Shown here: positions 54,874 through 56,414 of the stretch, one piece after another
Layout: the number at the start of each line of letters is the position of its first letter
Numbering within the stretch: position 1 is the first letter of the stretch
NCBI GenBank assembly: GCA_965207675.1
Contig: CBDBMY010000006.1
Coordinates: forward strand, 134,983 to 198,982
Direction of reading: 5' to 3'
Length of the DNA stretch: 64,000 nt
DNA from: Vicinamibacterales bacterium
Lineage (GTDB): Bacteria; Acidobacteriota; Vicinamibacteria; Vicinamibacterales; UBA8438
Translations under genes and position numbers: made by a program
Notes under the pieces: generated by a model
Database searches by the model: none
What the model was told of the DNA's origin: nothing
The model's input: only the letters and a program-made list of their open reading frames with translations

Positions 54874-55632
54874 TCAGAGCCTTTGGGCATAGGGTTTCCG
54901 GCCCATCACGTGGCCGTCAGGATACACGTTAACGTATCCCGATTTTCGTCGAATCCTCCACTGTTCGGTAGGCGTCGCGACGGTTGGCGCATCTCTGCCG
55001 TCGGCAGAGACGTCCCAGTGAGCGCCGCGTGGTAGCTCGCATCCGGCCACATGTAGCGCATCTCGGCCGTGAAAGGCCGCCGGATTGAGACACCAGGTCA
55101 ACCCCTGGTGGTCCCTCCTCCGATTGCCAGCACCGTGCACCTCGCCGAACCGCCGTCGTTGTTCCGGCGTCCCGAGTTCGGTCTGATGACTCTCGAAAAC
55201 ATGGAATGGAAGACACCGGGGGTCGTGGATGTTCTCACATCCGACAAGGTGGCACCACGTCTCGTACTCATCGAGATACTGCGAAACTTGGGCGGCAACA
55301 TCCGGAAGTGGCGACGCGTATGCCTTGTATCGCACGAACATCTCAACAGCCATGGAGATACGCGCACCACGCATCAACCGCACACGGGGACTTCCGGTAT
55401 GGAACACCCCGACCCTGGTTCGGTGAGATCGCCTGTACAGCTTGACGGCATCTGCACCGGCCATCCACATCAGTGGGCGCCCGTCGATACGCCGCTCAGG
55501 GTTCGGGACCACCTCCTGCAGTCGCCATGAGCGAGCGCGACACTCTCTCCGCAGCGCCTTACGCACCGACGCGATGCGCGTTCGTTCGCTGCGCGGGAAG
55601 ACGATCCAGACTTCGCGATCCGAGAGACTCAA
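54874..55632 (-). CDS. Unknown 252-aa Cys/His-rich protein (second gene of a coupled pair)
   Basis: The TTG start overlaps the upstream TGA (TTGA at 55629-55632). The first in-frame ATG is 54 codons further in. His/Cys-rich segments are WCHLVGCENIHDPRCLPFHVFESH and HVAGCELPRGAHWDV. I recognise no family. Confidence 0.55.
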   Translation of the reverse strand: MSLSDREVWIVFPRSERTRIASVRKALRRECRARSWRLQEVVPNPERRIDGRPLMWMAGADAVKLYRRSHRTRVGVFHTGSPRVRLMRGARISMAVEMFVRYKAYASPLPDVAAQVSQYLDEYETWCHLVGCENIHDPRCLPFHVFESHQTELGTPEQRRRFGEVHGAGNRRRDHQGLTWCLNPAAFHGRDALHVAGCELPRGAHWDVSADGRDAPTVATPTEQWRIRRKSGYVNVYPDGHVMGRKPYAQRL

Positions 55633-56414
55633 GGCTTCGTTCGCAGGAGAACCGATGACGGAATCTGTACGCGCTCCAACTCCTCCGCGTTCATCACCTG
55701 CACACAGGCGATCAGACGTCTGCGCAGTTCTTCACTCCGCCCCGAGCGCGACACCGCTTCGTGGGCGCCCGACCCATCCAGCAAATCCTCTGGAGCCGAA
55801 AGGTCCTGCTCCTCGAACCAAGCCACCAGATGTGCATGGACCTTCTTCTTCAGGTACTCGTTCCAACGATGCCTTACAGGCGCCGCAAGAACGCTCGCGG
55901 GAAGTCGCCGTTCCGTCCACTGCTCGGTCCGGTCGTCCCGTTCGTCATCGCCAAGGGTGTCGGAAAAGGCTCTCTTCCACTCGTTGAAGCTCTCCTCCGT
56001 CAGGGTCGGAAGAGTTGGTCCCGGTTCTGCGGCTTCGCTCGCGCGCCGGGCAACGCGTTCGCCCAGATCCCAGACGTAATTCTCGTTGCCGGAGAAGTCC
56101 AACGTCGCCCACCAGAGATCGGATCGAATTCGCGTCCGTGCGGATATCGATTCGACACCGGGCGGTGGAGCGCCCTCCCTAAAGATCGCGATCGGCGGCG
56201 TTTGGCTCACATCGATATCAAGAATGGCGGAATGCCCCCTTACGAACTCCAGGAACGTCGTCGCTCCGTGGTCCGACTCCCGAAAGGTCCGTTCTGTGAG
56301 ATCGAGCAAGCGATTCTTGAGAACAGCCACACTCATTCTGTACCAATCCGGCCGACCTGTCTCTTTCGCCTTCTCGAAGGCGTGCTGGATCAGTTCGTGT
56401 GGATCTGGCGGCAT
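55629..56414 (-). CDS. Unknown 261-aa protein with an N-terminal OST-HTH/LOTUS-like segment (first gene of a coupled pair)
   Basis: ATG 56414. DWYRMSVAVLKNRLLDLTERTFRESDHGATTFLEFVRGHSAILDI resembles OST-HTH domains. The remainder is acidic and helical with no recognised family. Confidence 0.55.
   Translation of the reverse strand: MPPDPHELIQHAFEKAKETGRPDWYRMSVAVLKNRLLDLTERTFRESDHGATTFLEFVRGHSAILDIDVSQTPPIAIFREGAPPPGVESISARTRIRSDLWWATLDFSGNENYVWDLGERVARRASEAAEPGPTLPTLTEESFNEWKRAFSDTLGDDERDDRTEQWTERRLPASVLAAPVRHRWNEYLKKKVHAHLVAWFEEQDLSAPEDLLDGSGAHEAVSRSGRSEELRRRLIACVQVMNAEELERVQIPSSVLLRTKP

Follow-up and report, generated by a model that had tools for sequence, protein, structure and literature searches.

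What do two overlapping minus-strand genes at positions 54,874 to 56,414 of a 64,000-nucleotide (nt) stretch of Vicinamibacterales DNA (contig CBDBMY010000006.1 of assembly GCA_965207675.1; the whole stretch is hereafter called the window) encode, and do they form a unit by themselves? A sequence-only reading had described them as a two-gene operon, with products of 261 and 252 amino acids (aa) and a TTGA overlap, in a low-G+C island of the defence type, and had named an RNA merely as an adjacent locus. The ORF listing and the sequence agree on the sizes, the strand and the overlap of the two open reading frames (ORFs), which we call A (upstream) and B (downstream). The coupled pair stands. 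The two-gene description is incomplete, because the pair belongs to a three-part cassette together with a gene for a structured RNA. All three parts are genuine, are inherited together and show selection; no described full-length family includes any of them. We are nearly certain of the anatomy, namely a self-contained and horizontally mobile cassette of ~1.9 kb (about 54594..56500) with three obligate parts. As to function, we propose, with a probability of about 0.5, that the cassette is a mobile RNA-protein conflict module of the toxin-antitoxin or abortive-infection type.

Pattern-based retrieval, with one genome per species, gave 65 related loci, of which ~58 are non-redundant; single loci are cited below by L numbers. 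Searches of all ORFs with hidden Markov models (HMMs) answered the question of whether the pair is conserved: in ~55 of the 58 non-redundant loci, A immediately precedes B on the same strand. Clustering of all neighbouring ORFs revealed no third conserved protein gene near A-B. On the coding strand, the A/B junction reads AAG CCT TGA, and the TTG start codon of B is embedded in this stretch. In the homolog alignment, B proteins share an N-terminal motif from residue ~5, EVWIVFP in the window and (E/D)-(V/I)-W-(I/V)-V-F-P in the family form. The overlapping TTG is the sole ATG, GTG or TTG candidate between the junction and this motif. Moreover, an ATGA, GTGA or TTGA overlap, or a spacer of ≤25 nt, is present at the junction in most of ~52 related loci. 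Because only this TTG precedes EVWIVFP and because the NTGA junction recurs in related loci, the sequence indicates that translational coupling of A and B is real, and that the internal ATG, which the sequence-only reading had kept as a possible start, is not the start of B. Just past the stop codon of the upstream DUF1552 (HXXSHH) gene there is a perfect 12-bp inverted repeat with a 9-nt loop (56496..56528). This repeat is probably the terminator of the DUF1552 gene, which would leave ~80 nt for the A-B promoter. A promoter scan of the ~80 nt upstream of A did not find a consensus promoter for A-B.

The base composition of this region had been read as clearly lower in G+C than the host, and this was borne out. 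The G+C content is 0.60-0.64 over 52-57 kb and ~0.71 elsewhere in the window. At third codon positions, the GC content of A and B is 0.66-0.68 and that of the flanking host genes 0.95-0.99. These values indicate that the cassette DNA is foreign to the host and was horizontally acquired. When the island was compared with its relatives by BLAST, homology to L001, L002 and L067 stopped sharply at 54593/54594. L002 shares the cassette alone, and this comparison defines the edge of the cassette at the RNA promoter. No terminal inverted or direct repeats were found flanking the cassette.

The RNA gene was visible in the same BLAST comparison: ~280 nt downstream of B are conserved alongside A and B in close relatives. 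The DNA of the RNA region is better conserved than the coding DNA (77% versus 64.5% identity in L029). The promoter scan gave 11 of 12 consensus matches for the RNA promoter, and a -35/-10-like pair is present at the matching distance before the RNA 5′ end in nearly all other loci. Therefore, the strand of the RNA is fixed and the RNA is an independent transcription unit. Its terminator ends 16 nt from the stop codon of B and probably also ends the A-B transcript. The terminator helix is conserved, with compensatory changes in 11 of 11 pairs. In all loci of the close clade, whose members come from three phyla, an HMM of the RNA sequence alone found the RNA at full length beside B. RNAalifold on 11 sequences gave 64 base pairs, 18 of them with compensatory changes.

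We then have three covariance models, R1-R3, from three rounds of building and searching. The window RNA matched R1-R3 over its full length with 169-215 bits. The models found the RNA in 47 of the ~58 loci, in each case at full length, on the strand opposite to B and abutting the B 3′ end. The 3′ end of the model fell between -28 and +25 nt of the B stop codon in 41 of 44 measured loci. In an Arthrobacter locus (L060), the only R3 match was on the unexpected strand. In an alignment of 46 sequences, 90.1% of the cells pair and compensatory (double) changes occur at 61 of the 64 pairs. The number of double-change cells was 752, compared with 227±14 in shuffles, and none of 500 shuffles reached the observed number. 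In slid controls of the alignment, pairing was 34-49%. It should be mentioned that this alignment was fitted to the covariance model, by which the pairing is somewhat inflated; the model-independent folds based on MAFFT give the same helices. As a negative control, R3 was run on 592 kb of unrelated GC-rich loci, taken from a search of genome contigs with a 17-base RNA pattern, whose matches were mostly due to chance. Besides a true copy (L115), which was also overlapped by a 19.5-bit match on the opposite strand, only one unrelated match (20.7 bits) was obtained.

Most of the loci missed by R3 are from Acidimicrobiia, and a separate alignment shows a conserved element at the same site in them. 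In L046, L048, L051, L059, L061, L064 and L069, the RNA is so diverged that the covariance model barely detects it. For example, the Aldehydirespiratoraceae copy (L059) was not aligned properly by R3 even without filters, and the separate alignment and fold were used. The Acidimicrobiia RNA possesses a 5′ GAUCC motif, as in the main family, a GGUAGC loop and a terminator, and its fold from eight loci has 49 pairs, of which 13 show compensatory changes. A scan of window positions 50000-58000 against Rfam 15 (E≤1) found no family at the RNA position and just a 21-bit terminator-like match to ctRNA. Scans of seven other loci found no Rfam 15 match at the RNA coordinates. From these comparisons we regard the RNA as a new structured RNA family that is widespread and absent from Rfam 15. 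Neither a tandem-repeat organisation nor a long unpaired hypervariable segment was seen in the family. In the window copy alone, the first hairpin contains a perfect 12-nt tandem duplication (TCGGGCTGGCTT twice; 54634..54657, plus strand), and within the RNA family no region varies more than this hairpin. The RNA also resembles the A leader over 21 nt (I2, 76% complementary), at a level expected by chance for the seed length used.

Table 1. Positions in the window of the three cassette parts, their signals and the neighbouring defence and mobile-element genes
Feature	Position	Strand	Basis or remark
Gene A	55629..56414	minus	ATG start, 261 aa (ORF listing)
OST-HTH/LOTUS winged-helix domain of A (~residues 5-78)	56181..56402	minus	Foldseek and PF12872
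Gene B	54874..55632	minus	TTG start, 252 aa (ORF listing)
TTGA overlap of A stop codon and B start codon	55629..55632	minus	sequence cTTGAg
Structured non-coding RNA gene, ~230 nt	54625..54861	plus	convergent with B; covariance models R1-R3
Predicted ends of RNA transcript	start ~54631, 3′ end ~54857	plus	
Sigma-70-type RNA promoter	54597..54624	plus	TTGACA, 16-nt spacer, TATGAT, extended TG
RNA terminator	54823..54857	plus	11-bp hairpin (54823-54850) and U-run
PycC cyclase	52534..53352	plus	PADLOC 2e-19; Pfam Guanylate_cyc; third-position GC 0.59
PycTM	53217..54011	plus	PADLOC 1e-22; Pfam PycTM; third-position GC 0.69
IS3-type stub	53911..54219	plus	only the HTH_21 part of the transposase remains (Pfam 1.2e-7)

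Protein A had been read as beginning with a segment like an OST-HTH/LOTUS domain, and both its fold and its family profile agree with this. A consists of the N-terminal OST-HTH/LOTUS domain, a small β-hairpin motif (RIRSDLWxAxLD...YVWD), Trp-rich helices and a C-terminal helical tail. The indexed search gave 161 homologs, and the invariant residues include V31, L32, K33, N34, R35, L37, T40, R97, D99, L100, W101, W115, W146, W166 and W184. The AlphaFold2 model of A has a predicted local distance difference test (pLDDT) score of 86 and a predicted template modelling (pTM) score of 0.53; the latter indicates several domains. In a Foldseek search of the Protein Data Bank (PDB), the first-ranked match was the LOTUS domain of TDRD7 (2lh9; probability 0.98, target TM-score (TMt) 0.59, 73 columns). 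Further LOTUS matches were 3rco, Tejas 8wxs (TMt 0.70), MARF1 5yad and the bacterial NE0665 2kpm. The Foldseek E-values for the whole 261-aa query were weak (0.13 or higher) because just one domain of A matches. At the sequence level, 21 of 38 A-family members matched PF12872 (OST-HTH) at E≤0.1, the best at 4.3e-6, and the window's own A did not match it at E≤1. The family consensus scored 23.8 bits, exactly the gathering score, so that the family-level match is marginal. In L012, the upstream gene is a divergent A, which was missed by the A model and scores 25.6 bits against OST-HTH. On the family-level profile score and the fold, we conclude that the N-terminus of A is a true but divergent OST-HTH/LOTUS domain.

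Outside the LOTUS domain, A had no match in the libraries searched. Searches of Pfam, NCBIfam, PHROGs, PADLOC and PDB sequences, with the single sequence and with the profile, gave chance-level matches only (Sp-CxC, ZorC, WD40 and dehalogenase). The best match in PADLOC-DB v2, ZorC, had an E-value of 0.017 over 35 residues and is thus below threshold, and B had no PADLOC match. In the same search the neighbouring PycC and PycTM matched strongly; thus, the search itself worked. A NYN or PIN-like nuclease domain is absent from A and from all 38 homologs scanned. A separate case is found in a betaproteobacterial metagenome-assembled genome from palsa (L056, 2439..4547). In this ORF the first ~220 residues are A-like, with the LOTUS domain, the hairpin motif and the Trp-rich helices, and are fused to an unrelated region of ~480 residues, which ends in a Walker-A-like GQKRVGKTS and has a short match to Pfam PRTase-CE. 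The L056 locus has neither B nor the RNA. This fusion suggests that the A module may serve a different partner.

Protein B could not be assigned to any family in the libraries searched, as the sequence-only reading had said of both proteins, and no housekeeping family appeared for either A or B. The AlphaFold2 model of B is confident (pLDDT 90.3, pTM 0.85). It shows an N-terminal α/β domain (~1-130), which is a generic α/β sandwich, and a C-terminal β-rich domain (~130-252). A Foldseek search of this model against the PDB and BFVD gave no match at E<0.001; the search was made with the whole chain and could miss a small sub-domain. The top matches were unrelated flavodoxin-like α/β proteins with a query TM-score (TMq) of ≤0.26. 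Searches of Pfam, NCBIfam, PHROGs, PADLOC and PDB sequences with the single sequence and the profile gave no matches. The indexed search found 44 B homologs, and an exhaustive profile search found 343 clusters at 50% identity among 1.84 billion representatives. The 150 clusters listed of these 343 have 157-306 aa, mostly ~250-300 aa, with one matched stretch each, and some of them match over their full length. Because the listed members have this size and a single matched stretch, fusions in the B family yielded no domain clue.

In 133 diverse homologs of B, the polar positions that are conserved comprise Y66, H70 and K103 in the N-domain, together with C132, D137, R139, R172, D174, H188, H205, D207, N235 and R243 in the linker and C-domain. 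The sequence-only reading had pointed to His/Cys clusters in B as a possible metal site or His-Me-type nuclease site. Neither proposal held up: most of the highlighted residues are poorly conserved, and the whole-chain structure search with the B model recovered no nuclease fold in the PDB or BFVD. C132 (92%), H144 (81%), H188 (98%) and H205 (99%) are kept in the family. In contrast, C140 (56%), C127 (23%), H136 (19%), C198 (14%), H149 (3%) and H128 (1%) are poorly kept. Because only one Cys is conserved and most of the other Cys/His residues are not kept, a Cys/His metal cluster in B is unlikely. The conserved His residues, together with invariant Asp and Arg, look more like a catalytic site. 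B is accordingly best described as a candidate new catalytic fold with an enzyme-like set of invariant residues. A Tyr-His-Lys set is reminiscent of RNases that work without a metal, for instance the tRNA-splicing endonuclease and certain Cas6 enzymes. In the C-domain, a sub-threshold similarity to Ntox37 (PF15535) was observed: 6 of the 133 homologs matched at E≤0.1, and the C-terminal consensus scored 14.5 bits (E 0.056) against a cut-off of 27.8 bits, with D174..D207 on profile positions 29-69. Ntox37 is an all-β domain of polymorphic toxins with an E, [KR], Hx[DH] signature (PMC3482391), and the H205-W-D207 of B fits the Hx[DH] motif. The window's own B has Met at codon 243 (54904..54906), where 92% of the 132 other homologs have Arg. 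This is the only departure of the window copy from residues held by ≥80% of the broad family, and it may be a hypomorphic or inactivating change.

The phyletic spread of the cassette is patchy. Its hosts belong to at least eight phyla: Acidobacteriota (Vicinamibacterales, Bryobacterales and Terriglobia), Gemmatimonadota, Chloroflexota (Dehalococcoidia and SAR202), Actinomycetota (Streptomyces, Herbidospora, Arthrobacter, Solirubrobacterales and Acidimicrobiia), Planctomycetota, Spirochaetia, Myxococcota and Proteobacteria. In each of two genomes the cassette is present twice (L015/L016 and L049/L050). Several copies are decayed. B is truncated in L020, L021, L024 and L026, and the RNA is retained in L020 and L021 despite the decay of A and B. 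In L048 (11252..12853), an insertion interrupts B; its 533-aa ORF looks by eye like a transposase of the IS256 type. In L029 (11816..13161), an inserted ORF is followed by a second 3′ piece of B and then by the RNA. The A gene is broken into two ORFs in L022, L052 and L065; B is intact in L022 and L052, and none was detected in L065. An apparent A-B fusion in L062 (9755..11605, a 616-aa ORF) was rejected, as the C-terminus of A continues in another frame and the ORF is the product of a frameshift. Because L022, L052, L062 and L065 are from metagenome bins, assembly error and real decay cannot be separated in these four loci.

In the window, the cassette has the neighbours that the sequence-only reading had seen: a Pycsar-like pair, identified by PADLOC as PycC and PycTM, and the HTH_21 stub of an IS3-type element. 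The pair makes up a complete-looking Pycsar system (52534..54011). The PycTM ORF overlaps the end of PycC by 136 nt; therefore, the true start of PycTM is probably internal. The stretch from the IS3 stub up to ~54593, which separates the Pycsar system from the RNA gene, is absent from L002. On the other side, between the gene for an AbgT-family transporter (50268..51824) and PycC, positions 51778..52571 contain only short overlapping ORFs of intermediate composition and with no assigned family; here the low-GC island has its second boundary. The flanks of the window are shared by its close relatives (DUF1552/HXXSHH and AbgT), and the Pycsar system is present in the window and two close relatives. 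Thus, the description as a defence-type island fits this window. It probably does not fit the family, in which only a minority of the cassette copies adjoin defence, toxin-antitoxin or mobile-element genes.

Other surroundings are diverse. In L068, the cassette lies among the genes for CTP synthase, enolase, IspDF and PurL. In L069, it lies among GroEL, FdhD, chlorite dismutase and NUDIX genes, and such flanks recur in related Acidimicrobiia loci. In L071, the cassette is carried in a TraG-bearing element. In L070, what is left of a Tn3 transposase at its C-terminus reads on into A as one ORF (2712..3911), and a gene with a SocA_Panacea antitoxin domain (1368..1907) lies ~1 kb from A. In L007, A is immediately preceded by three tRNA genes (4002..4668), a typical integration hotspot. 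Housekeeping Pfam families are the commonest among 279 genes within ±3 positions, and PIN, Uma2, AAA_21, HicB, integrases, transposases and RepSA form a minority. For the first 25 loci, the 131 genes within ±3 positions of the pair gave PADLOC matches at E≤1e-8 spread over 74 models, a number that stands without a background control. The models shown are DISARM with type IIG restriction-modification, MADS, PDC-S39 and SNF2/HKD-type, in one or two genes each; therefore, they probably concern few loci.

How might the three parts work together? In our proposal, A, B and the RNA would form a ribonucleoprotein, in which the LOTUS domain of A would bind the cassette's own RNA. The RNA and A would then hold the B enzyme in check or direct it. 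The substrate of B would likely be nucleic acid, probably RNA, and B would act via one or both of its conserved sites, Y66/H70/K103 in the N-domain and D137/R139/D174/H188/H205-x-D207 in the C-domain. The outcome would be a conflict module of the toxin-antitoxin or abortive-infection type, with a logic closest to the type III (RNA-protein) systems and retrons. The reading of A-B as a sensor plus an effector, with an antiphage or toxin-antitoxin role, thus stays plausible. In its full form, as a new class of ribonucleoprotein conflict system in which a LOTUS protein reads a ~230-nt RNA and both gate or target a new-fold enzyme, the proposal is tentative.

The signs that point to a conflict module are circumstantial: the patchy spread, the foreign composition, the paralogous copies, the decay and disruption by insertion sequences, and some neighbours of the defence, toxin-antitoxin or mobile-element kind. 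Several observations weigh against it. Roughly half or more of the surveyed neighbourhoods consist of ordinary housekeeping genes. In one Acidimicrobiia family, the cassette occupies a fixed syntenic site, from GroEL/THAP4-like/FdhD to chlorite dismutase/NUDIX (L046 = L069, L048 and L051), which looks like stable vertical inheritance. No relatives were found in 72,556 plasmids, 50,697 phage records and 2.9 million IMG/VR contigs. In L022, L052 and L062, which are metagenome bins and may contain assembly errors, a frameshift breaks A but B is intact; this arrangement is unexpected if B is a potent toxin neutralised by A. Finally, B has no match in PADLOC, Pfam, NCBIfam or PHROGs, A is below threshold apart from the family-level OST-HTH score, and the similarity to Ntox37 falls far short of its cut-off (14.5 versus 27.8 bits). 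Because the circumstantial signs are offset by the housekeeping contexts, the stable synteny, the absence from phages and plasmids and the broken A beside intact B, we place the conflict module at about 0.5.

The same observations can be read in another way. The cassette may be an accessory ribonucleoprotein for RNA metabolism, in the manner of Ro60/Y-RNA or OLE RNA and the Oap proteins. It would be composed of the RNA, A as the protein that binds it, and B as an enzyme that processes, repairs or modifies RNA. Horizontal transfer would have spread the cassette, and stress tolerance or RNA quality control would be the reason for its retention. Such a role would agree with an RNA that exceeds the other parts in conservation and that shows a complex long-range fold in place of a plain antisense layout, with a LOTUS domain as an RNA or ribonucleoprotein-assembly domain (PMC2848206), with the many copies among housekeeping genes and the stable synteny in Aldehydirespiratoraceae-like Acidimicrobiia, and with the absence from the phage and plasmid collections. 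However, a very patchy and rare distribution (343 clusters among 1.84 billion representatives), a codon composition foreign to the host, paralogous copies in some genomes and repeated truncation or disruption by insertion sequences are hard to fit with it. A subset of copies adjoins defence, toxin-antitoxin or mobile-element genes, and the clustering of neighbouring ORFs showed no linkage to RNA-repair genes such as RtcB, Pnkp and Hen1. We consider this role in RNA metabolism rather unlikely, second to the conflict module. More doubtful still is that A and B are an ordinary two-protein toxin-antitoxin or defence pair (type II or type IV-like) and the RNA a convergent antisense regulator and terminator of the type I kind. 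The gene layout of a type II toxin-antitoxin system, with adjacent genes in a conserved order and a stop/start overlap, is found in A-B: a winged-helix gene lies upstream of an enzyme-like gene with a 4-nt overlap, and the sizes are like those of AbiEi/AbiEii. Moreover, the RNA terminator abuts the 3′ end of B or overlaps it by up to ~28 nt, as in the convergent type I systems of Bacillus. The terminator alone overlaps B, however; the other ~200 nt are antisense to nothing in the cassette and carry the strongest conservation and covariation. Therefore, pure antisense control is no explanation of the RNA. LOTUS is an RNA-associated domain and not a typical operator-binding domain of antitoxins (PMC2848206), and the RNA was retained in L020 and L021, where A and B decayed. 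The broken A beside intact B in the metagenome bins L022, L052 and L062 argues weakly against a two-protein toxin-antitoxin pair as well.

A mobile element or maintenance module with an RNA cofactor, modelled on the IS110 bridge RNA or the TnpB/IscB omega-RNA, with B as a new recombinase or nuclease and the RNA as its guide, is very improbable. The compactness of the cassette, its sharp homology edge at the RNA promoter and its many insertion contexts would fit an element of this kind, and the N-domain of B has a weak Foldseek likeness to the catalytic domains of serine recombinases and resolvases (6dgc; a BFVD resolvase with a probability of 0.60). These similarities are far from significant, and B lacks a conserved serine at the resolvase position. 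Furthermore, genomes have at most two copies, terminal inverted repeats do not flank the cassette, the RNA has no long unpaired hypervariable segment able to act as a guide, and it lies on the strand opposite to B, unlike omega or bridge RNAs. It could also be asked whether the ORFs or the RNA are chance features, since GC-rich DNA yields many long spurious ORFs and the single-sequence folding z-score of the RNA is merely -1.96. This idea is refuted by the homolog families and the RNA covariation: there are hundreds of full-length protein homologs across phyla, the structure models of A and B are confident, the covariation of the RNA is massive, and its position, promoter and terminator are conserved. 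The conflict module stays our preferred explanation.

Three points make the cassette of interest. An RNA that is tied to two specific protein genes offers an immediate route to its function. A nuclease-free LOTUS family with an obligate partner enzyme and RNA makes the question of LOTUS recognition testable in bacteria. If the proposal is true, the cassette would be the first case in which a bacterial LOTUS protein without a nuclease is assigned a role and a partner RNA, and it would be a prokaryotic counterpart to the organisation of ribonucleoproteins by eukaryotic LOTUS proteins. B has a confident model and, by structure as by sequence, no relative in the libraries that were searched; it may represent a new catalytic fold.

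We searched the literature for OST-HTH/LOTUS domains in connection with bacterial defence, toxins or RNA and met with no account of this cassette; the comparison with known systems starts from A. Bacterial OST-HTH domains are almost all fused to a NYN-type nuclease and have no conserved neighbourhood (PMC2848206). Like A, the NYN/LabA-type (LK) nuclease-LOTUS proteins have an OST-HTH domain that is predicted to bind RNA, and they spread sporadically among bacteria by lateral transfer (PMC2848206). In contrast, A is free of a nuclease, its LOTUS domain is N-terminal and its neighbourhood of B and the RNA is strictly conserved. SzsA (Seongzusin), a LOTUS-domain protein of Pseudomonas aeruginosa, has been reported to protect against RNA phages (bioRxiv 10.64898/2026.04.06.716636). 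It resembles A in being a bacterial LOTUS protein of a genomic island, and its authors propose that it recruits effectors to RNA (bioRxiv 10.64898/2026.04.06.716636). It differs in that it is described as working when cloned alone, and neither a partner enzyme nor an RNA is named for it; here SzsA is set against A by description and not by sequence. Ntox37 shares with B a β-rich domain with an Hx[DH] motif, on which the B segment D174..H205-W-D207 aligns weakly. B is an intracellular two-domain protein that is not attached to a secretion or RHS module, and its score stays at 14.5 bits against 27.8.

As whole systems, the type III toxin-antitoxin systems (ToxIN, CptIN and TenpIN) are also small mobile cassettes with a protein effector and a dedicated structured RNA, which is highly expressed and has a terminator of its own, and they share the abortive-infection context and the patchy distribution. 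Their RNA consists of tandem short repeats, lies upstream on the same strand and is processed by the toxin, whereas the cassette RNA is a single non-repetitive RNA of ~230 nt, on the opposite strand and 3′ of B. The type III systems have one protein and the cassette has two, and B has no detectable relation to ToxN/AbiQ. Membership of type III was rejected on the tandem-repeat RNA, as the sole tandem repeat is the 12-nt duplication specific to the window. AbiE consists of AbiEi, a COG5340 protein, and AbiEii, a DUF1814 nucleotidyltransferase, and has no RNA component. It is likewise mobile and patchy, with an upstream winged-helix protein of ~260-290 aa and an overlapping gene for an enzyme of ~250-300 aa. 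Neither A nor B matches the AbiEi/AbiEii families, and the cassette has an RNA. Retrons are tripartite, with a structured non-coding RNA and two proteins in a compact mobile unit, and have toxin-antitoxin-like logic. Unlike retrons, the cassette has no reverse transcriptase, its RNA is convergent and not upstream on the same strand, and no Rfam retron match was found. In the convergent type I systems of Bacillus (txpA/RatA and bsrG/SR4), an RNA gene of ~180-220 nt converges on a protein gene with a 3′-end overlap. Their toxins are small membrane peptides and their RNA overlaps by ~100 nt or more, whereas only the terminator overlaps in the cassette, and the rest of the cassette RNA has a conserved long-range fold. 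We rate the cassette, with its putative function, as standing outside the known kinds, in that each analogue shares one feature with it and fails in the defining ones where these are testable.

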